Shown: piece after piece, positions 1,897-64,000 of the stretch
How the letters are laid out: every line of letters starts with the position of its first letter
Numbering within the stretch: the stretch's first letter is position 1
Virus record (IMG/VR): IMGVR_UViG_2757320620_000001
Span: 31,417 to 95,416 of that record
From: a virus
Taxonomy: Duplodnaviria > Heunggongvirae > Uroviricota > Caudoviricetes
DNA length: 64,000 nt
Strand: one strand, 5' to 3'
Translations under genes and position numbers: made by a program
Notes under the pieces: model-generated
Databases searched by the model: none
Seen by the model: only the letters and a program-made list of their open reading frames with translations
Told to the model about the DNA's origin: nothing

Positions 1897-2998
1897 ATTG
1901 CCGTCGCCTGAGCTTCTGGATCTCCTCATCAAGGTTGACCTGGCCGGCACGGATCAACCGGCACATCGCCCGGAAGTAACCGCCGAAATTCTTGATCTGC
2001 TCGGCGCCGGCAGCCGGCCGCGCCTGCATCTGGATAACCCACACAAGGGTCGCAGCAGCCGGCACCGGGCCGATCTCGCGCCTGGCCTCCTCCCAGGCCG
2101 ACGCAGACACGCCGAACGCGCCCCGCATTCGCCCGGCAGCCGCGACAAGCTCGAGGTCGTGCCGGATCTCACCCATGAACTCCATCGCATCAGGGCAAGC
2201 CATCTTCAGGTCACGCAGATCCGTCTGCCGCGCCGGCGCCTCCTCCACATTTTCATGGCTGTTGTTACAAGACTGGTCAGGGGCATATTTGTTGCTGTCT
2301 TTGTGACGGCAGTTATTGCCGGCAGAGGCGGTATAATATCTGGATTCTGCCTCCTGCCGGAGTGCTTGCCACTGCCCGCGGAAAGGGTCGGCCGATCCCG
2401 CGCTCGACCTACGCGGCGTGACGCGCACGAGCTCCAGGGCGCGCGCCGTCAGATCTTCGATGTCGACGCTCGGGTAAACCTCTGCAAGCGTTCTGAGAGC
2501 TTCCTGGGCCGAACGCCGGTGAATGGTCAGCTCGTCGAAGGCAACGCTGCGCTCGCGCTCCATTTCCTTCAGCGCCTCGAGCCTGGCGGCAAACTCCGGC
2601 CGGCGCGCAAGGAGAGGGGAGAGGTCGAAGCCGAAGGCCCGGATGATCTGCCCGGCCGGCGAGCGCTGCGCAAACCGTTTGCCGTTCGGCGAATCCTTGG
2701 AGACGATGACGCCCTCTTCAATCAGCCGGGCGATCGCAAACCGAATGGACCGCTCCGGAATGCCGGTGCGCTCGCCGATGAACTCGTTCGACGGCCAGAC
2801 AAGGATTCGACCCTCGACCGGCTCGCCATTATAGACGCCGCAAAGCTGGTCGAGCACGAAGCGCGCCGACGCCGGCAGCCGAAGGACTCGAGCTGCCATC
2901 CTGGCTGTGTCGAAGAGGTCTTGCTTTTCAAGGCTATATGGGTCTTGGAGGGCCGGTGCTGGCCGCAGACTGCGCCACCCCGATGACTGCGCTGACAT
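1895..2998 (-). CDS. repC: RepC-like plasmid replication initiator (repABC-type RepC family)
   Basis: 367 aa minus-strand ORF. The N-terminal winged-helix region ...WPSNEFIGERTGIPERSIRFAIARLIEEGVIVSKDSPNGKRF... matches the conserved core of alpha-proteobacterial RepC as I recall it. The overlapping + strand ORF 1898..2986 is an antisense artefact. Confidence 0.6.
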   Translation of the reverse strand: MSAQSSGWRSLRPAPALQDPYSLEKQDLFDTARMAARVLRLPASARFVLDQLCGVYNGEPVEGRILVWPSNEFIGERTGIPERSIRFAIARLIEEGVIVSKDSPNGKRFAQRSPAGQIIRAFGFDLSPLLARRPEFAARLEALKEMERERSVAFDELTIHRRSAQEALRTLAEVYPSVDIEDLTARALELVRVTPRRSSAGSADPFRGQWQALRQEAESRYYTASAGNNCRHKDSNKYAPDQSCNNSHENVEEAPARQTDLRDLKMACPDAMEFMGEIRHDLELVAAAGRMRGAFGVSASAWEEARREIGPVPAAATLVWVIQMQARPAAGAEQIKNFGGYFRAMCRLIRAGQVNLDEEIQKLRRRQ

Positions 2999-3053
2999 TG
3001 ATTTCCCTTGCTTTTCAAGGGCAAAGCTTCGCCAGACACTTCGAAAAGAAATG

Positions 3054-3168
3054 TTGACAAATCAGCGGTGATTCGGGATAACCAAGGTGTGAAGCGAGGC
3101 GATCCAAAGTCGCTGAGTTAATTTCAAAGGCTCTGGGATTGCCGTCCTGGAGCCTTTTGCTTTGCCGA
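3054..3168 (+). ncRNA. candidate counter-transcribed (antisense) RNA across the repC leader: promoter-like TTGACA-N17-GATAAC plus a terminator hairpin
   Basis: TTGACA at 3054-3059, a GATAAC -10-like hexamer 17 bp downstream, and the hairpin GGCTC...GAGCC (3129-3133 / 3150-3154) followed by TTTTGCTTTG. All of this is antisense to the intergenic leader between the RHH gene and repC, the same architecture as the ctRNA of repABC replicons. Confidence 0.3.
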
Positions 3169-3170
3169 GT

Positions 3171-3377
3171 TTAGTTTCCTTTGCTCAATTCGAATTCCTT
3201 GATCGCTCGCGCAATCAGATCCGACCGGTTTTTGAACTGGCCCGCCGACATCATGTCGCCGAGTTTCGTCTGTAATTCCTGATCAAGCCAGACGGTGATC
3301 TGGCTTTCGCCGGCAGCCTCGCGTCGTTCCCGATACCTGGCCGCGGCACGCGCGTTAGCATTTCCTTCAGCGTTCAT
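3171..3377 (-). CDS. ribbon-helix-helix (CopG/Arc/MetJ-like) DNA-binding protein
   Basis: 68 aa. The pattern ITVWLDQELQTKLGDMM...NRSDLIARAIKEF is a typical beta-strand-helix-helix signature. It lies immediately upstream of repC and in the same orientation, so an operon is likely. Confidence 0.5.
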   Translation of the reverse strand: MNAEGNANARAAARYRERREAAGESQITVWLDQELQTKLGDMMSAGQFKNRSDLIARAIKEFELSKGN

Positions 3378-4252: not shown

Positions 4253-4269
4253 CAGTAAATATTGACTGA
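4253..4269. promoter_or_regulatory. recurrent palindromic motif copy (CAGTAAATATTGACTGA)
   Basis: 28 bp upstream of ORF 4298. Confidence 0.5.
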
Positions 4270-4297
4270 TCGGTGTTGACATGACAAAGGACGCATC

Positions 4298-4528
4298 ATG
4301 CAGAAACAGCAGCAGGCAATCACCAACTCCCACCTCGACGCCATCAAGGAGATTCCCTTCGATGTTGCCTGGGCTGAAGGTGCGAGATTGGTGAACGGCG
4401 TGCGAACAGACAAGGAAGGCGTGACGGTTCTCACCGGCACCCACCCGGAACACGGCAATATCCACATCATCATCCCTGCGGTCGGACAAGGGCTCCTGCT
4501 CTTCCCGTTTGTAGTCCAAGATTTTTGA
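4298..4528 (+). CDS. hypothetical protein (76 aa)
   Basis: ATG with an AAGGA RBS. It is preceded by a motif copy at 4253-4269. Confidence 0.4.
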   Translation: MQKQQQAITNSHLDAIKEIPFDVAWAEGARLVNGVRTDKEGVTVLTGTHPEHGNIHIIIPAVGQGLLLFPFVVQDF

Positions 4529-4535
4529 TGCGATA

Positions 4536-4560
4536 AATAATCAATCAAAATTGATTTAAC
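4536..4560. promoter_or_regulatory. motif variant (AATAATCAATCAAAATTGATTTAAC)
   Basis: 11 bp upstream of the cobT-like gene. Confidence 0.4.
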
Positions 4561-4570
4561 GGAGTGCGAC

Positions 4571-7081
4571 ATGAACAATGACATTGTGATCCTGCGCGAA
4601 GCGATCAAGAAGATCGTGCCGATGCTTGCTGGCAAAGGCCTGACCGTGACGCAAATGGGCACACAAGCCTATGTTCAGCCGCACCCCGTCACCGGTCTGC
4701 CCTGGCGCGTGAATATCCCTCTCCTGCCCGACAACGCCGAGCCGGAGTTTGTGTTCGCGATCCAGGGCTTCATCGACCATGAGGTCGCCCACGTCCTCTT
4801 CACCGACTTCCTGTTCAAGGCGCGCGACAAGTCGAAGCGCCTGCACAATTTGCATAACATCGTGGAAGACACGATGATCGAGCGGCTGATGAGCAACGAG
4901 TTCCCCGGCTCGAAGCGCAACATCTCCAAGCTCCGCGAATACTTCCTGCGCAACGTCACCGCGGCCGCGATCGCAAAGGCGCGCTCGAAGGAAGAAGAGT
5001 TCGGCTACCTGGTCGTCGTCTTGATGCGGGCGCTCGCCGGCCACGTCGAGTTCCAGGAATTCATGGACGACAACAATTACTGGGAGCATGAGCTGGTCAA
5101 GCCGTTCATGCAGCGCTTCCCGAAGGCGTCGCAAGACAAGATGCCGCTGCTTCAGACGACCGAGCAGACCTATGACATCGCGGTCGAGATCGAAGCCATT
5201 CTCTACCCGCCACCGCCGCCCGCCCCGCCGCAGCCGCCCGAGCCTGAAGAGCAGGACGATCAGGATCAGGGTGAAGGTTCTGATGACCAGGAGCCGTCGG
5301 AAGGCGAAGACGACAAGGATCATTCCGACGAACAGCAGACCGGCGACGGCGAAGGTGACGGTGAGCGCGAGCACACCGAAGACAACGACGATGCGTCGGG
5401 CGGTGAAGGCGAAAGCGAAGAGGAGAAGGATGACGATGCCGGCGACGGTGAAGACGAAGGTTCCGGCGCAGGCGAAGAAAAAGCCGACGATGAGGAAGGC
5501 GATGACGTCGCTCCCGGAACGAGCGCAGATGATGGCGACGACGATTCGGCTGACAAAGAAGATGCCAGCGACGAAGACAGCGATGGCTCGGCCGGTGAGC
5601 AGGACGACGCTGACGACGAGCCCCAGACCGGTAAGAGCTCCAGCTCGCCCAAAGAAGACGGCGATGATGATGCCGATGATCAGGGTGGTTCCGGCAACGG
5701 CGACGACGATGAGCATGACCAGGGCGAGGAAGGTTCTGATGAGCATGCTGACGCTGGGCAGGAAGCAGCGGATTCTGATGCAGAGGGTGAAGACCAGCCC
5801 GCTGAGATGGAAGATGGCGCCGATGAAAGCGGCGAGGCAGATCAGTCAGATGATGGCGAAAGCGGAAGCGACGCTGGAGGCTCTGGTTCCGATGATCAGT
5901 CCGAAGAAGATGGCGAAGACGACGAGGCGGGCGGCAACCCTCTGAACAACGTTGCCATCGAGGACGCCGGCAGCGATGAAGACGGTGAAGATGGCGAACC
6001 TGCCGAGGATGACGACACGCCGAGCGTCGAACTCGCCGGCATCGGCTACGATCCGAACCAGAACCCCTTCTCCGCAATGAGCGACGATGAGCTTGACGAG
6101 AAGGATATCTCGTCGGCGCTGGTCAAGATCATCGTCAAGGAAGCGATCTCGGCCTGCCGGGCTGCCGACTATTCGGTCTTCACCCGCGACTACGACATTA
6201 TCAAGCCGCTCGAGGTGCCGGAAAACTTCAGCAGCAAATATATCGTGGAGCTCGAGGAGCAGACCCGCGCGCTGACCGGCGTGATGCAGAAGGATATCGA
6301 GCGCATGATGGCCGCCCAGGCGCGCGTCTTCAATGTCGCCGGTCAACGCTCCGGTCGCCTCAACAGCGCCGGCCTGCATCGCCTGACGGCCGGCGACGCG
6401 CGCGTGTTCTCGCGCCGTGAGGAGATCCGCGCGAAAGATACGGCTGTGGCGCTTCTGTCCGACTGCTCCGGCTCGATGAAGGGTCGCCCAATGGCAACGG
6501 CGCTGTCGGCCGCATACGCGCTTGCCTCGGTGCTTGAGCGCTGCAATATCCCCTCCGAGTGCATGGGCTTCACGACCGCGCAATCATACGGCAGCGGCAG
6601 CGTCATGTCGGAAGACCGGGTCCGGCAGTTCAGCGCCGACCTTATGAATGAGACGCAGAAGTCCGGCGTGCGCTTCTCGCGCACCGTGCCGATCTACATG
6701 CCGATCTTCAAGGACTTCAACGAGCGCATCAACGCCGACGTCAAGAAGCGCTTCGCCTATCAGCGCAAGAACCAGCCCTTCATGGGCGCAAACGTCGACG
6801 GCGAGTCCCTCGAATACGCTGCGATGCGCCTGGCGCGCCGCAAGGAGAAGCGCAAGGTGATCATCGTTCTGTCCGACGGCTTTCCTGCCGGCGCCAGGAA
6901 CGACGACGAGCACCTGAAATACATGGTCGAGCGCCTGACCGGCATGGGTTACGACCTCGTCGGTATCGGCATCGAGTCCGACGCCGTCGAGCGCTTCTAC
7001 GACAACCATATCGTCCTGCAGTCGGTCGACGAGCTGCCGCGCGCCGTTATGGGCGAGCTGAAGAAAATCCTCATGAAATGA
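4571..7081 (+). CDS. CobT-like von Willebrand factor A domain protein with a roughly 270 aa Asp/Glu/Gly/Ser-rich linker
   Basis: N-terminal region resembles aerobic cobaltochelatase CobT. The C-terminal VWA/MIDAS motif D-x-S-x-S is present as LLSDCSGSMKG. A long acidic low-complexity insert occupies 5200-6060. Confidence 0.75.
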   Translation: MNNDIVILREAIKKIVPMLAGKGLTVTQMGTQAYVQPHPVTGLPWRVNIPLLPDNAEPEFVFAIQGFIDHEVAHVLFTDFLFKARDKSKRLHNLHNIVEDTMIERLMSNEFPGSKRNISKLREYFLRNVTAAAIAKARSKEEEFGYLVVVLMRALAGHVEFQEFMDDNNYWEHELVKPFMQRFPKASQDKMPLLQTTEQTYDIAVEIEAILYPPPPPAPPQPPEPEEQDDQDQGEGSDDQEPSEGEDDKDHSDEQQTGDGEGDGEREHTEDNDDASGGEGESEEEKDDDAGDGEDEGSGAGEEKADDEEGDDVAPGTSADDGDDDSADKEDASDEDSDGSAGEQDDADDEPQTGKSSSSPKEDGDDDADDQGGSGNGDDDEHDQGEEGSDEHADAGQEAADSDAEGEDQPAEMEDGADESGEADQSDDGESGSDAGGSGSDDQSEEDGEDDEAGGNPLNNVAIEDAGSDEDGEDGEPAEDDDTPSVELAGIGYDPNQNPFSAMSDDELDEKDISSALVKIIVKEAISACRAADYSVFTRDYDIIKPLEVPENFSSKYIVELEEQTRALTGVMQKDIERMMAAQARVFNVAGQRSGRLNSAGLHRLTAGDARVFSRREEIRAKDTAVALLSDCSGSMKGRPMATALSAAYALASVLERCNIPSECMGFTTAQSYGSGSVMSEDRVRQFSADLMNETQKSGVRFSRTVPIYMPIFKDFNERINADVKKRFAYQRKNQPFMGANVDGESLEYAAMRLARRKEKRKVIIVLSDGFPAGARNDDEHLKYMVERLTGMGYDLVGIGIESDAVERFYDNHIVLQSVDELPRAVMGELKKILMK

Positions 7082-17075: not shown

Positions 17076-18179
17076 ATGGCATCAGCAGCAGATATCGCAG
17101 CGTCACTCGCAGGGGCGATCGGCGCAAACGACGAAGAGGTGACGGTCACGCAATTCCTGCCGTCCGGCTTCCCGCCGCTCGACCACGCATCCAATGCGAG
17201 CTGGGATCAGGGCGCTTTCCCCGTCGGCCGCATGATCGAGATCGCCGGCCCGCCCTCCTCCGGCAAGACCGCGCTCGCAACGGCAGCTATGGCCGGCGCC
17301 CAGGCAATGGGCGGTATTGCCGGCTTCATGGATCACGAGCGCTCGTTCTCGCTGAAGCTGGCGCCGAAGCTCGGCCTCGACGTTACGCCGGGACGCTTCA
17401 TTTTCAAGACACCGAAGACCTTCGAGGAAAGCCTGCAGATTTGCGTGGTTGCGGCCAACCATATCCGCAAGAACAAGCTGATCAAGAAGGACGCGCCGAT
17501 CTGCTGGGTGTTTGACTGCCTGGCCGCAATGGTGCCGCAGTCGGCCTATTACGAAATGAAGAACGGCAAGGTCGTCGGCGTCAAGTCGCTCGAGGATCGC
17601 AACATGAACGACAACACGGCGCTTGCCCGTGCCACGTCGAACGCCTTCCCTGCGTTCTCGCAGCATTGTGAAGAGCTCGGCATCTGCGCCATCTTCCTCA
17701 ACCAGATGCGCACCGATTTGAACGTCAAGTTCGGCGATCCGCGCAAGACGACGGGCGGCAACGCTCCGGCATTCTACTTCTCGCAGCGCCTTTGGCTGTC
17801 GGCCGCCCAGATCAAGAAGGGCACCGAGATCATCGGCATGGAAGTCACCGGCTCCTACAAGAAGAACAAGATCGCACGTCCGTTCCAGACGGCCGCCTGG
17901 CGCTTCATGTTCCAGGAAGACGGCACCGGCAAGTTCGACCGGCAGCGCTCGCTGGTGGAGTTCCTCGAGACGAACGGCTTCCTGCCGAAGGCCAAGCCCG
18001 GCTTCGTGACGTTCGACGGCAAGACGATCGCGAAGGAAACGCTCGCTCGGCAGATCGAAAGTGAAGGCGAAACTGGCTTCAAGCGGCTGATGGCGCTACT
18101 GCCGGCCAACTTCGAGCCGCCTGTCGTCGCCGAAATCGACGCCGACTTTGACGAGGACGCCGATCCTATCGCGGCGTAA
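17076..18179 (+). CDS. RecA/UvsX-family recombinase
   Basis: Walker A IEIAGPPSSGKTALA corresponds to the RecA EIYGPESSGKTT segment. Length is 368 aa. Strong GGAGAAAAACG RBS. Confidence 0.8.
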   Translation: MASAADIAASLAGAIGANDEEVTVTQFLPSGFPPLDHASNASWDQGAFPVGRMIEIAGPPSSGKTALATAAMAGAQAMGGIAGFMDHERSFSLKLAPKLGLDVTPGRFIFKTPKTFEESLQICVVAANHIRKNKLIKKDAPICWVFDCLAAMVPQSAYYEMKNGKVVGVKSLEDRNMNDNTALARATSNAFPAFSQHCEELGICAIFLNQMRTDLNVKFGDPRKTTGGNAPAFYFSQRLWLSAAQIKKGTEIIGMEVTGSYKKNKIARPFQTAAWRFMFQEDGTGKFDRQRSLVEFLETNGFLPKAKPGFVTFDGKTIAKETLARQIESEGETGFKRLMALLPANFEPPVVAEIDADFDEDADPIAA

Positions 18180-18255
18180 TCGCTAATTAGCGAAAATTGC
18201 CGTTCAACTCCGATGAATTCCAGTCTATTAAAGAAGCAAATCAGCGGAGACGAAC

Positions 18256-18765
18256 ATGAAGGTAATTTCGATCTGGCAGCCGTGGGCGACACTTATCGTC
18301 CACGGCTACAAAAGGTTTGAGACACGAACCTGGGCGCCGCCCAAATCAGTGATTGGTCAGCGCATCGGTATTGCCGCGACAAAGAACGTTCTGCCAAAGC
18401 AGCTCGAAGCCTTCAACGATCCGGAATTCCAGTTCTTTTGGGATTTGCTCGACGAAGATTGGCAGTTTGAGGATCTCAAGCGCGGCTATCTGCTCGGCAC
18501 GGTTCTGCTCGACAGCTTCGAGGAGATCACCGAGGAGTTCATCGCCGATATCACGCGCGAAGAGAAGGCATACGGCTGGTATCAGGGTGGTTTTGCCTGG
18601 CGCCTGAAAGAGCCGCAGCTCCTCGAGCACCCGATCCCGATCAAAGGCGCGCAAGGTCTTTATGAATGGAAGGGCTTTGAAAATGGCGCGCAAGCCGAAA
18701 GTGCCGACAACAATCGTCCGCCGCGGCCGACGAATCTACGGCCACATCTATCACTTTGCCAATAG
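18256..18765 (+). CDS. ASCH-domain protein
   Basis: ISIWQPWATLIVHGYKRFETRTW matches the ASCH beta-barrel signature G-x-K-x-x-E-x-R. Confidence 0.5.
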   Translation: MKVISIWQPWATLIVHGYKRFETRTWAPPKSVIGQRIGIAATKNVLPKQLEAFNDPEFQFFWDLLDEDWQFEDLKRGYLLGTVLLDSFEEITEEFIADITREEKAYGWYQGGFAWRLKEPQLLEHPIPIKGAQGLYEWKGFENGAQAESADNNRPPRPTNLRPHLSLCQ

Positions 18766-19081
18766 AGACGTTTACCTCGCCGCCCGGAAGCTCGATCAGA
18801 TCTTCCGGTTCGGCGAGAAGTGCAACTCGGATGCGCTGCGCAAGGACGTCGCGGCCTGGGCGCTGGATGAGGAAACTATCACCGAGCTGCGCCTGATGAA
18901 GATCGTCTGGGTTGGCGTTCGCGTAAAGCAGAACAACGACATCTACATCACCCGGATCGAAAACTTCTTTGACAGCAAGAAGACCAAGTTCCTGAACTTC
19001 GAACGCCGCGGCGGGGCCGCGCAGCGCTACCTTCCCCTGAAGCATTTCAAGCACATTCCCGGCGCCGTTAAAATCCGCTGA
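18683..19081 (+). CDS. hypothetical protein (about 132 aa)
   Basis: Overlaps the end of the ASCH gene in another frame. AT-richer codon usage makes this a weak call. Confidence 0.3.
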   Translation: MARKPKVPTTIVRRGRRIYGHIYHFANRDVYLAARKLDQIFRFGEKCNSDALRKDVAAWALDEETITELRLMKIVWVGVRVKQNNDIYITRIENFFDSKKTKFLNFERRGGAAQRYLPLKHFKHIPGAVKIR

Positions 19082-23490: not shown

Positions 23491-23867
23491 TCAGGCTGAT
23501 GAACAATTGCGGCAAACACGCCGTCGAAGCCTTGCGTTACCTGTCAAAGCACGAGCGTCCGATCGGCGGCGAGCAGACGTTTAACGCCATCGACCTGCTC
23601 TATACCGCCGACTTTCTGGAGCGTGAGTTGACGCGCCTGGAAATCACCGACCAAATGGTCGAGCGCGCGGCAAAGGCGCTCGAGAAGAAGATCAAGCAAT
23701 CCAAATACGAATGGACTGACGAGCAATTCGAGATCTGGTGGAACAAAGATCCGTATTTTGTCAGCGCCGAAACGAGCTGGGGCGACGCGTTTGGGCGCGG
23801 CACCAGAAAGAATCGTGCGCTCTGGGAAGCCCGGATTATCCTTGAGACGGCGCTGGTGAAGGCATGA
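23487..23867 (+). CDS. hypothetical protein (126 aa)
   Basis: ATGA-coupled. Confidence 0.4.
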   Translation: MIRLMNNCGKHAVEALRYLSKHERPIGGEQTFNAIDLLYTADFLERELTRLEITDQMVERAAKALEKKIKQSKYEWTDEQFEIWWNKDPYFVSAETSWGDAFGRGTRKNRALWEARIILETALVKA

Positions 23868-33196: not shown

Positions 33197-33816
33197 TGCT
33201 GTATTGTTGCACCGGCACCCATCGCTCCGGCAAGACGACGACTGCGAAACTCCTTGCTGAACAGCTCGGCATCGAGTTTCTCGACTCCTCGTTCGACGTC
33301 GCCAAGAAGTTCGGCTTTAACCCGGTCGGCGAAATGAGCCTCACCGATCGCATGGCAATGCAGATCCTCGTTCTCGAGGATCACATCGAAAAACTAAAGG
33401 CAGCGCCGCGCCCGCTGATCACTGATCGCTGCCCGCTCGACTACTTCGCCTACACGCTGGCGCAGTTCGGCATGACCTCGCACAAGCAGACCGACGAGAA
33501 GACGATCCTGGCAGCGCATGCGTTCGCTGAGAAGTGCCTCGAGGAGACGAAGACCTATTACGACATGGTCTTCATCATGGATCCGCTCAAGGTCTACGAG
33601 GTCGATCTGACCAAAGCCACGCCGACGGCCAATCCCGCCTTCCAGCTGCACATACACGCCCTCATCCACGGCGCCGTGTCGCAGATCCACCAGGAGGTCA
33701 ACTACGCGATGGTGCCGTTTATGCCGGTCCAGGATCGCGTGGATTTCATCGCGCAAAACATCGTGGAGCGCATGAACGATATCGACGACCTTCGGAAGTC
33801 GGAAGGCATGCACTGA
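33196..33816 (+). CDS. P-loop (deoxy)nucleoside monophosphate kinase, T4 gp1-like
   Basis: Walker A CCTGTHRSGKTTTAKLL resembles T4 dNMP kinase GVKRSGKDTTA. TGATG coupling to dut. Confidence 0.5.
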   Translation: MLYCCTGTHRSGKTTTAKLLAEQLGIEFLDSSFDVAKKFGFNPVGEMSLTDRMAMQILVLEDHIEKLKAAPRPLITDRCPLDYFAYTLAQFGMTSHKQTDEKTILAAHAFAEKCLEETKTYYDMVFIMDPLKVYEVDLTKATPTANPAFQLHIHALIHGAVSQIHQEVNYAMVPFMPVQDRVDFIAQNIVERMNDIDDLRKSEGMH

Positions 33817-33858
33817 CTTCCTGATATAGCCACGCGCATCCCGTGTGCGCGTGTGCTA

Positions 33859-33880
33859 TTCAGTAAATATTGATTGATCG
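33859..33880. promoter_or_regulatory. motif copy (TTCAGTAAATATTGATTGATCG), upstream of the rIIA-like gene
   Basis: Preceded by the hairpin CACGCGCA/TGCGCGTG (33829-33853). Confidence 0.5.
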
Positions 33881-33909
33881 CAAACGATCGACACGAAAGG
33901 AAGACAGAA

Positions 33910-36273
33910 ATGGAAGTTTCGCAGGTAGCGGCGCTCGACACCCACGTAATCATCGGTGGTGGTGCGCCCGAGGCGTTCGGCATGGCCGATACCGCTGAAT
34001 TTTACGACGTCCTCTCCGACAACATCTACCGCGACAAGAAGCGCGCGGCGATGCGCGAGACCATTTGCAACGCCTGGGATGCGCATATCATGGTCGGTAA
34101 GACCGATGTGCCGGTCGAGATCACCGTCACCGACACCGAGATCGTCATTAAGGATTTCGGCCCAGGTATTCCGGATCATCTGATGCGGCCGATCTACTGC
34201 GTCTATGGCGCCTCGACGAAGGTGAAAGACGGCAAGCAGACAGGCGGTTTCGGTCTTGGCTCCAAATCGCCCTTCGCTGTCGGCGACCACTTCAACGTCG
34301 TCAACGAGCACGCCGGCTTCAAGACCGTATATGCCCTGTCGCGCGGTGGCGCCGCAACGCAAGGCAAGCCCGACATGCGCCCGATGGTGCGCGTGCCGTC
34401 CGTCAACACCGGCATTACCGTCACGATCCCGCTGAAGAACGTCAAAGATCGCCCCGAGTTCGAGGCCCATATCCGCGCAGTCGTGCGCCAGGGCGGCATG
34501 CTTGCCAATCTCAACGGTCAGCCGCTTTTCCGCAACGATTACACCGAGGCGCGCAAGACGGAATATTGCCTCATTCCGCAGACCGGTCTCTGGGAAGGCA
34601 AGGTCTATGTGCTTTACGGCACGGTGATCTATCCGCTGACAACCACCGACGAAGACTTGCTGGCGCTCGCCCACAAGGCCGGAAGCTATACCTGCCGCGA
34701 ATCCATTCTGCTGCTCTGCGCACCGCCGAACTCGATCGGTGTCACGCCCAGCCGCGAGTCCCTCTCCTATTCCGACACAACGACCGAGACGCTGACGCGC
34801 CTTTTGCAGAAGGCCTGTCGGCAGATCAACGCGGCGATCCCAGCCGCTATCAAGCGCGTTGCCCACGCCAGGCTCGAGAGATGGGGTGTAAAGGCGTTCG
34901 ATCGCAGCTTTGACGCCGAACGTCGAACCTGCGGCATTCTCTCGACGCCGGCGATGATCGCTGACCACGCGGTCGCCACCAACTCCGCTCACATGTCGGC
35001 CAAGCAGGCTAGACGCACGATGCTCAAGGTCGCCGCACCGATGTTCCGCGACGACCGGCGCTGGTATCGGCGTGCTGTTCACGAGCATTACTCCAACGAC
35101 GAGCTTAATTTCAGGCGCACTTCGATGCCGGCCATTCGCATTGCCTCGCAGATGGGCTTGCTGAAGGATCTGATGCTGTTCGATCTGCATCGCAACCGCC
35201 TGGCCCTGCCTGGCCCGAAGACCCAGCCGATCGCCAAATATCACCGGATCGGCCACGTTCACGCCGTTCTTTGTGTGGCGCGCAATCTGCGCGATCTGCG
35301 CCCGACGCTGAATGCCACCTCCGGAAGGTTCCGCAACGAGGAGCATAGCTACGTTCCCGGCGTCGTGATGCGTCAATGGACGGAAAAGAACCTCAAGGCC
35401 CTGCGCGAACTCTGCTCGCGGTTCAAGATTGAGCTGGTCGAGTTCGATTACGAGGAAGAGAAGGAGCGTCGCGCGAGCCAGGCGAAGCGGGTGAAGACCG
35501 AGGAGAAATACCTGACCCTCGAGGACTACATCAAAAGCGGCTATCGCGCCGACCCCACCTGCAATGAGCCGGCCTTCTACATGATGACCTGGCAGCGCGA
35601 CGAGATCCCGCGCACGCCGTTCGACACTCATCTTGTGAAGGCGATCGTCGAGAAGTTCCCCAACACGGCGCTGATCACGACGAAAGCCCAGGAGGAGAAA
35701 TTCAAGAAGCTCGGTATCCGCAACCTGGCCGAAGTCGCGGCCGCACGCCTGGTCGAGCTGACGAAGCTGCGCGAGGTCGTCTACGGCGAGCTCATCCGGC
35801 ACGACCGCATCGCCGCAGACAAAGACCGCTTCTATCACGGCTCCCTTGCCGACGCCGTGCTGAAGCTCGCCAAACTCGACGTGCGTATCGCCAAGATGCT
35901 CTTCCCGGACAGGTCGACGCCGGGCGAGGCCCACAGGGAGGCCGCACTGCTTTGGGACTTCCTCGTCAACGCCCAGTCGCTCTCCGAGGAGACTACAGCG
36001 ATCGTCAAAGCGGCGAAGAAGGGATTGCGCCGAGCCTGCGCCGAATTGTTCAAGCCGCTCACTGCGGATGAAGTGGACCGGCGCTTTGCATACCTCGAAG
36101 TTCTGCGTGGCGCCAACATCATCGGCTCCATGAACTACAGATCAACCTCGAAGGAGGCTGAGAACTTGATCGAGGTGATCAAGATTCTCCAGCGCCGCAG
36201 CAGTAAATCAAAATTGATTGCACACAACACCCAGGCCGCGAAGGTCACAACCGCCCACAAGGAGGCAGCATGA
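33910..36273 (+). CDS. rIIA: rIIA-like protein with an N-terminal GHKL (HATPase_c) ATPase domain
   Basis: Bergerat-fold motifs: N box ETICNAWDA, G1 box KDFGPGIP, G2 box TGGFGLGSKS. About 787 aa, immediately followed by and coupled (ATGA) to a clear rIIB homolog. Confidence 0.65.
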   Translation: MEVSQVAALDTHVIIGGGAPEAFGMADTAEFYDVLSDNIYRDKKRAAMRETICNAWDAHIMVGKTDVPVEITVTDTEIVIKDFGPGIPDHLMRPIYCVYGASTKVKDGKQTGGFGLGSKSPFAVGDHFNVVNEHAGFKTVYALSRGGAATQGKPDMRPMVRVPSVNTGITVTIPLKNVKDRPEFEAHIRAVVRQGGMLANLNGQPLFRNDYTEARKTEYCLIPQTGLWEGKVYVLYGTVIYPLTTTDEDLLALAHKAGSYTCRESILLLCAPPNSIGVTPSRESLSYSDTTTETLTRLLQKACRQINAAIPAAIKRVAHARLERWGVKAFDRSFDAERRTCGILSTPAMIADHAVATNSAHMSAKQARRTMLKVAAPMFRDDRRWYRRAVHEHYSNDELNFRRTSMPAIRIASQMGLLKDLMLFDLHRNRLALPGPKTQPIAKYHRIGHVHAVLCVARNLRDLRPTLNATSGRFRNEEHSYVPGVVMRQWTEKNLKALRELCSRFKIELVEFDYEEEKERRASQAKRVKTEEKYLTLEDYIKSGYRADPTCNEPAFYMMTWQRDEIPRTPFDTHLVKAIVEKFPNTALITTKAQEEKFKKLGIRNLAEVAAARLVELTKLREVVYGELIRHDRIAADKDRFYHGSLADAVLKLAKLDVRIAKMLFPDRSTPGEAHREAALLWDFLVNAQSLSEETTAIVKAAKKGLRRACAELFKPLTADEVDRRFAYLEVLRGANIIGSMNYRSTSKEAENLIEVIKILQRRSSKSKLIAHNTQAAKVTTAHKEAA
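36201..36223. promoter_or_regulatory. motif copy (CAGTAAATCAAAATTGATTGCAC) inside the 3' end of the rIIA-like CDS, upstream of rIIB
   Basis: Seen directly. Confidence 0.4.
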
Positions 36274-38951: not shown

Positions 38952-39196
38952 GCGGCGTCACCCCAGAAGCCGCTGAATGGCCGACGCACGTCGAGGAGCT
39001 GAGCCGCAAGCTCAATGAGCAGCTCAAGCGCCGCGTCGATGCTCACACCCGAGGCGTCATCAACGACAAGGAGCTCTATCTCCTTGTCAGCTTCGCCTGG
39101 GATCTCACGGCCGGCCTCGTCTTCGAAAGCGACAGCCGCACGCTCGAGACCCTGCACACTGCGCTGCGCGCCACGCTGAAGGGGCAGAAGAAGTGA
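38948..39196 (+). CDS. hypothetical protein (about 82 aa, GTGA-coupled)
   Basis: ORF-track frame 38915..39196 trimmed to the coupled GTG start. Confidence 0.3.
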   Translation: MSGVTPEAAEWPTHVEELSRKLNEQLKRRVDAHTRGVINDKELYLLVSFAWDLTAGLVFESDSRTLETLHTALRATLKGQKK

Positions 39197-39768
39197 CCGA
39201 CAAATTTCCCAAAGATTTGTGGATCCTCGAGGCGATCAAGGTTCGCTACATCATCCCGAGGGAAGATGGCACGATCTGGCGCCGGAAGTGGATCGGCGCC
39301 GACCTCAAGAGCATGAGCAAAGAGGTCCACCCGATCAAATACCGGACGCACAAGGCGACCGGCCGGGTCTATTTCAACCTGACCTTCAAGGGCGTCACGA
39401 AGTCCGTCCTCGTCAATCGCGTCATCGCACTGGCGTTCCTGCCCAACCCGCTCAAGCTGCCGCAGGTCAATCACATCGACGGCGACAAGAGCCATAATTA
39501 CCTGCGGCAGCCGACACCGGAGCTGATCGCCAAATGGGGCGAATATCAGCTTGAATGGTCGACCGGCCGCGACAACGAGAAGCACGCCCATGCCAACGGC
39601 CTGAAGACCGGGCGCGGCTCGCAGAATTCGAACGCCAAGCTGACAGCACCCGAGGTCGCCGAGATCCGCGCATCGACGGAGAGTCCCTCGGTGCTGGCGA
39701 AGAAGCACGGCGTCGCCCGATCCACCATTGTTAACGTCCTGGAGAAGAAAACATGGTTACACGTCTGA
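39193..39768 (+). CDS. HNH homing endonuclease (HNH_3/AP2-like with a C-terminal HTH)
   Basis: YFNLTFKGVTKSVLVNRVIALAF...VNHIDGDKSHN is the HNH motif. The C-terminal VLAKKHGVARSTIVNVL is a NUMOD-like HTH. Confidence 0.7.
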   Translation: MTDKFPKDLWILEAIKVRYIIPREDGTIWRRKWIGADLKSMSKEVHPIKYRTHKATGRVYFNLTFKGVTKSVLVNRVIALAFLPNPLKLPQVNHIDGDKSHNYLRQPTPELIAKWGEYQLEWSTGRDNEKHAHANGLKTGRGSQNSNAKLTAPEVAEIRASTESPSVLAKKHGVARSTIVNVLEKKTWLHV

Positions 39769-39878
39769 GAACACCGCGGCACACGAAAGAGTGCCGGCTG
39801 ATCCTGTGGGGCTCGATCTTCGTGGCCTTTGTCATCTATTCCGGCATCATGTTCGGTCTGTCGGTGATGGCGCCATGA
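39753..39878 (+). CDS. unlisted small membrane protein (41 aa)
   Basis: MVTRLRTPRHTKECRLILWGSIFVAFVIYSGIMFGLSVMAP. Its stop overlaps the next ATG at 39875 (ATGA). Confidence 0.3.
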   Translation: MVTRLRTPRHTKECRLILWGSIFVAFVIYSGIMFGLSVMAP

Positions 39879-43126: not shown

Positions 43127-43400
43127 GGCTGTCTTTCGCTACCGCTATTTACCGAGCGGCAACGCAGATGCCTTCCCGGAGATCGATGCTTTCCTGAAGG
43201 AGCGTCAAGTTAAGGCGCAGATTTCAGAGATCAACGGCGGGCGCATGTATCGCGTGCCTGTCGAGGATCTTTCCAAGATGCCCAGCGACGAGCACGGCCC
43301 CTACTTCGGGACCGAGGAGTCTGGCTGGAGCTTCCATCAGGACGATTGGGATTTCATGCGCGTCGCTTGGGGCGGCTCCGAATGGAAGGAGCTCGCATGA
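43119..43400 (+). CDS. hypothetical protein (93 aa)
   Basis: ATG 43119 overlapping the upstream stop. Confidence 0.35.
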   Translation: MTEAVFRYRYLPSGNADAFPEIDAFLKERQVKAQISEINGGRMYRVPVEDLSKMPSDEHGPYFGTEESGWSFHQDDWDFMRVAWGGSEWKELA

Positions 43401-43531
43401 CGGCAGTCGGCCAATACGACCCAAAGCTCGGGCGCGACCGCACCCATAGCGACGATTTTTACGATCACCGCAAACTGGTCCAGGAGCGCATCACTGACGC
43501 CCTGCGCCGTGAAAAGGAAGGAAAGAAGTGA
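43397..43531 (+). CDS. hypothetical protein (44 aa)
   Basis: ATGA-coupled. Confidence 0.25.
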   Translation: MTAVGQYDPKLGRDRTHSDDFYDHRKLVQERITDALRREKEGKK

Positions 43532-63380: not shown

Positions 63381-63623
63381 GTGGAACAGGCCATGATCAC
63401 CGCACCCAAGCAGCTCGCACCCTACGCCGATCGCGACCTCGACTGCCAGGCCGCCTTAGAGAGCACCTTCAACCAGGTGCTGCTGCTCGCCGAGCAATAC
63501 GGCTGGAGCCGGTCCGAGACCGCCCAGGCACTCCAGGAGCTCGCCTTCAACCGCCTCGCCCAAGAGGAAGAGAACCGGCTAACCACGCTCACCATCGAGC
63601 AGCTGAGCTTCGCCCGGCATTGA
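63381..63623 (+). CDS. hypothetical protein (80 aa)
   Basis: GGAACAGGCC RBS. Confidence 0.35.
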   Translation: MEQAMITAPKQLAPYADRDLDCQAALESTFNQVLLLAEQYGWSRSETAQALQELAFNRLAQEEENRLTTLTIEQLSFARH

Positions 63624-63824
63624 CAACCCCGGTCCTGATGTTGACAGGCAGCCCATTCTGTCAACACAGCCACCCCAAAACTCCTCGCAGACCTACTGTC
63701 CATGTTGACAGCATTCCCACCCATTTTGTCCAATGACCATCTCAACAAGGCTTTGATGTTGACGTAAGTTAACCCTATGTTGACAGCCAAGCCCAATTTC
63801 AGCCTTTTCTCCAAGCCGTCAACA
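63619..63824. repeat. iteron-like cluster: four direct and two inverted copies of ATGTTGAC(A/G)
   Basis: Direct copies at 63637, 63701, 63755 and 63776. Inverted copies GTCAACA at 63659-63665 and GTCAACAT at 63817-63824. A partial TTGACAAC sits at 63619. No ORF overlaps. Confidence 0.55.
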
Positions 63825-64000
63825 TATCTCCCCAAATCAGCAGCAACCTGAAAACTCTCATAGCAGCGCACAGAATCGATCCATCAGCTCAAGAGCAGCG
63901 ACAGAGCAGACAACACGACAAAACGCGTCACAGCGAAAGCTCGACAGCTACAGACAGCACACCAACGCTATAGAGCAGAACGCAGACCACGCAGCGCTTA

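Follow-up and report, generated by a model that had tools for sequence, protein, structure and literature searches.

A repeat array with lineage-specific boxes in RHEph10-type phage-plasmids, a candidate docking site for a dedicated DNA-binding protein

Introduction

Rhizobium phage RHEph10 carries an array of short direct and inverted repeats that, judged from sequence comparison, is most likely a protein-docking site, with about seven copies of a box of 8-10 bp and a candidate binder that is specific to the lineage. In more distant relatives the position and architecture of the array are constant while the box itself has wholly changed, which argues for a dedicated, co-evolving DNA-binding protein and not for -35 elements of the host. 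The array may serve as the recognition site of the small terminase subunit, a pac or cosB-like element, a reading to which we give a probability of roughly one in three (0.35).

RHEph10-type elements are phage-plasmids of ~117 kb that are widespread (Rhizobium, Ensifer/Sinorhizobium, Pararhizobium, Shinella, Methylobacterium) and barely studied. The array is the clearest candidate for a cis-acting site in them, being unique in the genome, fixed in position and composed of a box that varies between lineages. If it is a packaging site, it would define the genome ends and explain which DNA can be mobilised among nitrogen-fixing symbionts, restriction-modification islands included. If it is a master operator, it would mark the switch between plasmid carriage and lytic growth. 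Under both readings it offers a short and directly testable target.

The repeat array of RHEph10

The window, i.e. the whole stretch of 64,000 nucleotides that was analysed, belongs to Rhizobium phage RHEph10 (NC_034248.1, 115,042 bp) and covers positions 31,417-95,416 of that record; its last 2 kb are 100% identical to it. The end of the window lies in the interior of the RHEph10 genome and is not a genome terminus. The motif ATGTTGACR was found seven times in the window against 0.56 expected, a number reached in none of 100 shuffles, and five of the seven copies lie inside the array. Exact copies start at 63638, 63702, 63756 and 63777 on the + strand, and one copy occupies 63817-63825 on the - strand; a search with the 7-mer TGTTGAC adds an inverted copy at 63660-63666. 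The original prediction had counted four direct and two inverted copies in a non-coding stretch. Both numbers hold, and so do the spacings of 64, 54 and 21 bp between the direct copies, which were recomputed, while each of the direct starts had been placed one base too low. The stretch is indeed non-coding: gp105 stops at 63623 and non-coding DNA runs for about 630 bp past the window end, to record ~96,255. Genome-wide, TGTTGAC occurs 34 times in 115,042 bp, with six of the copies within the 206 bp that hold the array (Poisson P = 2e-11), and TGTTGACAG is present only four times in the whole 115-kb genome, each time in the array.

Homologous loci from phages, plasmids and islands were compared in a five-way alignment (A1) and a nine-way alignment (A2). 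The aligned set consists of RHEph10, RHph_Y2_11, RHph_N1_15, one IMG/VR contig, a plasmid remnant of A. vitis, three islands and plasmid p5 of Pararhizobium qamdonense (115.6 kb). In these alignments the array is a discrete unit of ~190 bp, bounded on the left by GGTCC..ATGTTGAC and on the right by GTCAACAT. It contains four direct boxes, two clear inverted boxes, one partial inverted box and one TTAAC half-box (Table 1). The box logo, built from 39 copies in six homologous arrays, reads a-T-G-TTGAC-R-g; a G precedes TTGAC in 37 of the 39 copies and an A is found at -3 in 30 of them. Exact TTGACA is present in three of the four direct boxes. Boxes 3 and 4 together with the half-box form three direct pentamers, TTGAC-N5-TTAAC-N6-TTGAC, in a phase of 10-11 bp, and this TTGAC/TTAAC/TTGAC triple was also found in further metagenome loci. 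The phages and islands have kept the inverted repeat at box 1, whereas it is missing from Pararhizobium p5 and, in A. vitis, is degenerate. Outside the boxes, the CCCATTTTGTCCAATGACCATC block is the best-conserved part of the array (A1, A2).

Table 1 Features in and around the repeat array of RHEph10 (window positions unless stated otherwise)
Feature	Position	Strand	Basis or remark
gp105, 76 aa, acidic	63393..63623 (record 94,809-95,039)	+	annotation
Additional TTGACA	63620-63625		overlaps the stop codon of the upstream gene (gp105)
Box 1 ATGTTGACAG and inverted partner CTGTCAACA	63638..63666	both orientations	perfect 9-bp inverted repeat, 10-bp spacer
Box 2 ATGTTGACAG	63702..63711	+	invariant in 9/9 aligned homologues
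Non-box block CCCATTTTGTCCAATGACCATC, then partial inverted box TCAACAAGG (63742-63750)	63720..63750	+	alignments A1, A2
Box 3 ATGTTGACG, half-box TTAAC (63769-63773), box 4 ATGTTGACAG	63756..63786	+	invariant columns, A2
Conserved T-tract CTTTTCTCC, then terminal inverted box GTCAACAT	63804..63825		right edge of the unit shared by phage and islands
Start of strand-asymmetric A/C-rich stretch	63830..64000, running on beyond the window	+	composition, conservation

Change of the box between lineages

A search with the 232-aa protein encoded to the right of the array (see below) yielded phage-plasmids of ~117 kb in Sinorhizobium (pLM21S1), Methylobacterium (two), Shinella and R. beringeri, as well as the phages B1VFA, V1VFA-S and X66. 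Contigs or plasmids of 115-122 kb with the RHEph10 gene set were also observed in assemblies of Rhizobium, Ensifer, Pararhizobium, Shinella and Methylobacterium, in agreement with a phage-plasmid family of wide distribution. In all relatives examined, 1.3-1.5 kb of non-coding DNA precede the 232-aa gene and start with a repeat array. Conservation of the repeat in relatives, which the original prediction had left to be checked, was found: relatives keep the array box by box, and more distant phage-plasmids have an array with another box in this position.

The ATGTTGAC class of boxes is shared by RHEph10, Y2_11, N1_15 and Pararhizobium p5. The array of B1VFA (39,114-39,312) has CCTTTACA/TGTAAAGG boxes in the same layout as RHEph10, with the final inverted copy equally distant and with TTTAC-N6-TTTAC-N6-TTTAC as the counterpart of the phased triple; in the first 50 kb of the B1VFA genome, the part that was scanned, CTTTACA occurs six times, always in the array. 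A mix of ACCTTTAC and CCTTGAC (CCTTKAC) forms the array of pLM21S1. In Methylobacterium, pAMS5a has about eight ATGTCCCATGG-type units and M. oryzae has TGTCCCC repeated 4-5 times in tandem with a period of exactly 11 bp, besides inverted copies. The comparison supports the earlier notion of iteron-like sites bound by a protein; the RepC and centromere functions proposed along with it were not borne out (see below).

The non-coding region and the probable boundary of the terminal repeat

The array is the left edge of a conserved non-coding region of ~1.2 kb (record 95,040 to ~96,255). In phage-type loci it is followed rightward by an A/C-rich stretch, a G/T-rich stretch, a GGGCGGCGCCGCGCC block and a hairpin with a T-tract, and then by CCATGG/CCACGG clusters, a 13-bp inverted repeat around an AT-rich loop and the first gene. 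The ~285 nt after the array (record 95246-95530) contain 37% A, 34% C and 10% T on the top strand, and the next ~95 nt (to record 95,625) are rich in G and T (44% G, 23% T). The hairpin, conserved and terminator-like, is located ~600 nt downstream of the array (record 95,796-95,829), and the AT-rich stretch flanked by the 13-bp inverted repeat ~850 bp from it. The cumulative GC skew is featureless at the array. Scanned against Rfam by E-value, five loci gave no family over the region, and folding of the 593 nt right of the array revealed no excess stability (z = -1.0 and +0.8 for the two strands); a large structured RNA to the right of the array is not supported. RefSeq places gp104 here (record 95,550-96,113). 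The homologues show frame-breaking indels in this frame (A1), the annotators of N1_15 left the region unannotated, and gp104 is probably not a gene.

Some motifs in this region behave differently from the array box. CTAGAGAG and yATAGAG, both located in the asymmetric stretch, are found again in all lineages (pLM21S1, pAMS5a), which the array box is not; in the Methylobacterium counterpart of the stretch the bias to A and C is replaced by one to A and G. The early intergenic spacers are filled with clusters of CCATGG/CCACGG hexamers (record 95,860-96,010, 97,100-97,230, 97,900-98,000 and 98,730-98,800), and B1VFA has CCTAGG where RHEph10 has these hexamers, a second set of short motifs that varies between lineages. 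The motif CCGGTCCGTCTC(C/T)CTTC followed by 35-45 bp of AT-rich DNA is found at record 96,030, at 110,604 (upstream of gp076) and at 23,826 (upstream of gp029). Two of these three modules are closed by an inverted repeat, and the three may act as terminator/promoter modules or as promoters read by the phage sigma factor gp045.

Fixed ends with a direct terminal repeat of 3,605 bp have been described for B1VFA, and a repeat of 3,939 bp for V1VFA-S, one of the two published lengths resting on coverage only (PMC12509600). Every B1VFA position was mapped to V1VFA-S and windows of 3,605 bp were sought whose counterpart measures 3,939 bp. Within +/- 4 bp, only windows starting at B1VFA 39,639-39,808 qualify (335 bp difference against 334 expected). 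The next-best classes of window starts are 39,113-39,638 (344-345 bp), 62,587-65,875 (320-327 bp, in structural genes) and 17,810-18,896 (382-384 bp). The qualifying window begins within the non-coding region, either at the GC-rich block or directly behind it, and its other end is intergenic (43,244-43,413). From the published lengths and the mapped coordinates we infer that the left boundary of the B1VFA terminal repeat lies 330-500 bp right of the array. Transferred by homology, the boundary in RHEph10 would fall at record ~95,600-95,740 (window-equivalent ~64184-64324), i.e. ~180-320 bp past the window end, and the non-coding region probably contains the left boundary of the terminal repeat. 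No motif common to both putative boundaries of the B1VFA repeat was found. Contig ends in the assemblies gave no information on termini; the end of contig L014 resembles, by eye, the start of an insertion-sequence gene.

Neighbouring genes and candidate binders

Among the protein-coding genes, gp105 alone accompanies the array in both phages and islands (tblastn, island ORFs against phage). Its family was found only in Rhizobium and Rhizobium phages, and the AF2 model consists of two long helices in a hairpin (pLDDT 80) without a significant match in the PDB. gp105 was rejected as binder of the array: it has a net charge of about -5 and a predicted two-helix hairpin, and one plasmid has the gene without the array.

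On the right side, the RefSeq annotation of gp103 (96,170-97,060) uses a wrong frame. The ORF that is conserved (record 96,255-96,953; 4256-4954 of locus L001) encodes 232 aa, begins with MTKKNAST, shows an 82% match to N1_15 EVB78_010 and has a C-terminal winged helix in the model. The recognition helix of this winged-helix domain is invariant across lineages with different boxes, and gp103 was therefore discarded as binder or initiator. Further to the right, gp094 (record 101,179-101,559) has an Acb2/Tad1 hairpin domain (Pfam PF24729, E = 5e-13), which makes it likely that the genes right of the array form an early anti-defence block. Besides this domain, Pfam and PHROGs gave almost nothing on the neighbouring genes.

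RefSeq gp097, annotated on the + strand, is probably on the wrong strand. The minus strand has an ORF of 188 aa (record 99,198-99,761; L001 7199-7762) with a good ribosome-binding site, which matches minus-strand genes of relatives and is weakly similar to gp103 (pairwise E = 0.001). Upstream of this divergent ORF lies a TGTTGAC-N14-TGTTGAC pair (record 99,780-99,801) whose members are 21 bp apart, as are boxes 3 and 4. The inverted array box, GTCAACAAC, is also seen 15-25 nt upstream of several early start codons (record 96,234, 97,251, 98,451 and 99,780-99,801), and the motifs GCCAGAT and CGCTAAAT stand further upstream of it at early genes.

The candidate small terminase subunit, gp076, is encoded directly upstream of terL in a TerS-like layout and has an N-terminal helix-turn-helix. 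Two positions of this helix-turn-helix track the box class, with WRRF/HRRF accompanying ATGTTGAC boxes and SQRL/SSRF accompanying CCTTKAC boxes; the box classes are at the same time clades. This correlation, weak and confounded by phylogeny, is consistent with gp076 as the binder of the array.

Islands carrying the array

Chromosomes and plasmids of Rhizobium also contain islands of ~7-10 kb, located at tRNA-Ser(CGA), that hold the array and a gp105-like gene; they were found in pRL10 of R. ruizarguesonis, in Rhizobium sp. L43, in R. mulingense and in several contigs from metagenomes. R. ruizarguesonis RCAM1026 is among the strains with such an island. Their cargo comprises an integrase, a Rap1a-like gene, a resolvase and a ScaI-like restriction-modification pair. 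Homology between phage and islands ends at GTCAACAT, and the island sequence to its right is unrelated to the phage. When island ORFs were searched by tblastn, only the gp105-like gene and the array matched the phage and no other common protein was found, so that an array in need of a specific protein would have to be served in trans there. This recalls satellites that have captured the cos or pac sites, or the responsive promoters, of a helper, and we count it in favour of a terminase site.

A rather doubtful explanation is that the islands are hitchhikers on RHEph10-type phage-plasmids, having captured the array and the gp105-like gene; on infection by such a phage, its array-binding protein, a terminase or a regulator, would package or induce the island. 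If so, they would constitute a new satellite-helper pair in rhizobia, with the lineage-specific box as a compatibility code between phage and island. P4 with the P2 cos site and cos-type SaPIs are comparable in that integrase islands hold the unique cis site of a phage without the gene for its cognate protein. Unlike in these cases of piracy, the rhizobial islands have restriction-modification, resolvase and Rap1a-like genes and no recognisable satellite functions.

Possible functions of the array

A terminase site was among the options of the original prediction, and it gains indirect support from the putative repeat boundary in the relatives, 330-500 bp to the right of the array. In such a mechanism gp076 would assemble on the phased boxes and, once bound, would direct the large subunit to a cutting site a few hundred bp to the right; this cut would create the left end of a genome with direct terminal repeats. 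The array is a one-per-genome site of repeated boxes with a phage-specific sequence. Lambda cosB, SPP1 pac and P1 pac are terminase recognition sites with repeated boxes, and the short, phased boxes of the array in both orientations likewise fit wrapping around an oligomeric helix-turn-helix protein. Like the R sites of lambda cosB (IHF), SPP1 pacL/pacR and the P1 pac hexamers, the array is a unique site of ~150-250 bp with short boxes in both orientations, partly in helical phase, phage-specific and probably near a DNA end. Unlike them, it would lie 330-500 bp outside the putative repeat and 15 kb from terS. The long direct terminal repeats of the relatives (3.6-3.9 kb) represent a packaging type whose recognition sites are poorly known. 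In T7 and T3 the concatemer junction has the phiOR promoter and the short repeat arrays SRL and SRR, which flank the terminal repeat of 160 bp (T7), and T5 has a non-coding repeat region within its terminal repeat of 10 kb. As at these junctions, the RHEph10 region combines non-coding DNA rich in short repeats with a putative direct terminal repeat beside it; its promoter-like elements face the junction, and early genes are situated in or beside the repeat. It differs in that there is no sequence relationship, in the length of the repeat of its relatives and in the presumed use of the host RNA polymerase. Besides its distance from terS and its predicted place outside the repeat, several observations speak against a terminase site: the islands do not have the downstream region where the cut would fall, the boxes of the Rhizobium lineages equal the -35 consensus (TTGACA or TTTACA), a coincidence that the terminase model leaves unexplained, and the array is located where an operator of the early region would be expected.

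The array may alternatively be an operator/promoter complex for rightward transcription into the leader and the early anti-defence block, a reading that we hold to be doubtful but worth serious weight. A lineage-specific repressor or activator of the phage-plasmid would bind the boxes, box 2 and TCTAAT would be a SigA promoter, and the island copies of the region would drive genes in divergent orientation and react to infection by the phage. Its location fits: on one side a long + strand operon ends, and on the other follows a block of small genes, among them that of the Acb2/Tad1 protein, set apart by large intergenic gaps. The conserved terminator-like hairpin downstream fits as well, and so does the leftward Rap1a-like gene that abuts the array in Pararhizobium p5 and the islands. 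Box 2 and TCCAAT (TCTAAT in most relatives), 18 nt after the TTGACA of this box, form the one plausible promoter of SigA type within the array. A scan for consensus sigma-70 promoters gave no sites, the -10 candidate of box 2 being without the A at position 2, and a -10-like hexamer at 16-23 nt was found at box 2 only (other copies inspected manually). TTGACA-N18-TC(T/C)AAT is kept in eight of nine homologues, and its retention in most TTGAC-type arrays makes a transcriptional role possible. SigA of R. etli was reported to depend mainly on the -35 box (PMC4943231), and the missing -10 elements are therefore not decisive. On the other hand, the promoter spacing is broken in Pararhizobium p5 by a 10-bp insertion and absent in L014 and B1VFA, a regulator co-varying with the box was not found, and the adjacent gp103 keeps its recognition helix despite different boxes. 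The TGTTGAC pair upstream of the divergent 188-aa ORF would suit an operator, but in B1VFA the counterpart of site 99,780 contains no CTTTACA. Moreover, if the terminal repeat starts right of the array, the early-gene copy that enters the cell first would have no array upstream. Taken simply as a cluster of host SigA promoters, with each TTGACA a -35 element as in the tandem early promoters of T7 and T5, the array is hardly credible. The exact TTGACA in most direct boxes, the TTTACA of B1VFA and the reported tolerance of SigA for poor -10 boxes agree with such a cluster; the TGTCCCC and ATGTCCCATGG arrays at the homologous position in two Methylobacterium phage-plasmids, the weaker TTTACA in all six B1VFA copies, the conserved inverted copies and the conservation beyond the hexamer (G at -1, A at -3) do not. 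The earlier statement that the boxes are unlikely to be stacked sigma-70 promoters is thus upheld by the TGTCCCC box of Methylobacterium, which is no -35 element, while the missing -10 that had been given as its reason is weak by itself. As for host regulators, boxes of CtrA, PhoB, FixK and LexA were dismissed, as near-matches only were seen by eye and these are not conserved in relatives.

It is unlikely that the boxes are iterons of a lytic or plasmid origin, bound by an initiator other than RepC that opens nearby DNA. In favour of an origin, the short direct and inverted repeats are unique, conserved and lineage-specific in sequence, the octamers of P4 ori/crr behaving comparably, and the AT-rich stretch with its 13-bp inverted repeat is situated in the same non-coding region. 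However, this hairpin is remote from the array and copies of it also precede terS and gp029, whereas no AT-rich unwinding element adjoins the array (51% A+T, and 47% in the next 285 bp). The boxes, of 8-10 bp in mixed orientation and at irregular spacing, are not tandem iterons of 17-22 bp, no initiator gene co-varies with them (the gp103 recognition helix is invariant), and integrated islands without a replication gene carry the array. RepC, which the original prediction had named among the possible binders, is encoded by gp039, a protein of the repABC type (Pfam RP-C + RP-C_C; record 33311-34315). In repABC-type systems the origin lies inside the repC coding sequence and RepC acts in cis. 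TGTTGAC does not occur inside repC, its nearest copy being in the upstream spacer at record 34468, and the array is 61 kb away, so that this part of the prediction is not supported. The partition centromere that it had also named is very improbable. The phage does encode a small ParA and a ribbon-helix-helix ParG-like protein, and type Ib and type II centromeres likewise consist of short repeats in direct and inverted orientation, which in R1 parC follow an 11-bp phase. Such centromeres adjoin their par operon, mostly on its upstream side, and belong to elements that replicate autonomously. But the par operon (record 102263-103179) is 7 kb away with its own upstream non-coding region, and the same array is found in chromosomally integrated islands and in a 629-kb plasmid with maintenance systems of its own. 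With P1 oriR, P4 ori/crr and R1 parC the array shares direct and inverted short repeats that co-evolve with a dedicated protein, and the Methylobacterium arrays share the 11-bp phasing of the R1 parC repeats; unlike these systems, the RHEph10 array has no adjacent unwinding element, no co-varying initiator and no adjoining par operon, and it is present in integrated islands.

Other occurrences of the box

The spacer upstream of repC contains a single ATGTTGACA (window 3051-3059, record 34,467) and, near it, two copies of CTTGCTTTTCAAGG (window 2900-3200). The site may act as an operator of repC or of the small gene gp040.

An attachment site, an idea taken from a tRNA-adjacent match in rumen contigs, was rejected for the array: the annotation of RHEph10 lists no integrase, the array and the tRNA-Ser that flanks the islands have no run of 9 nt or more in common, and the neighbours of the metagenome matches are heterogeneous. 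pLM21S1 has likewise been reported to have no integrase. A res site was rejected on inspection, the orientation and spacing of the half-sites being at odds with the layout of resolvase res sites.

The triple in the form ATGTTGAC-N5-TTWAC-N5-GTTGACA was observed in unrelated metagenome contigs of 46-59% G+C (among L020/L024/L026/L031, L022, L025, L035 and L036). Four low-GC metagenome matches look coding and are probably coincidental. In one family of metagenome loci the triple stands between a tRNA 3' end and a large ORF, in another it stands beside a resolvase gene, and L035 and L036 have the entire array-like layout.
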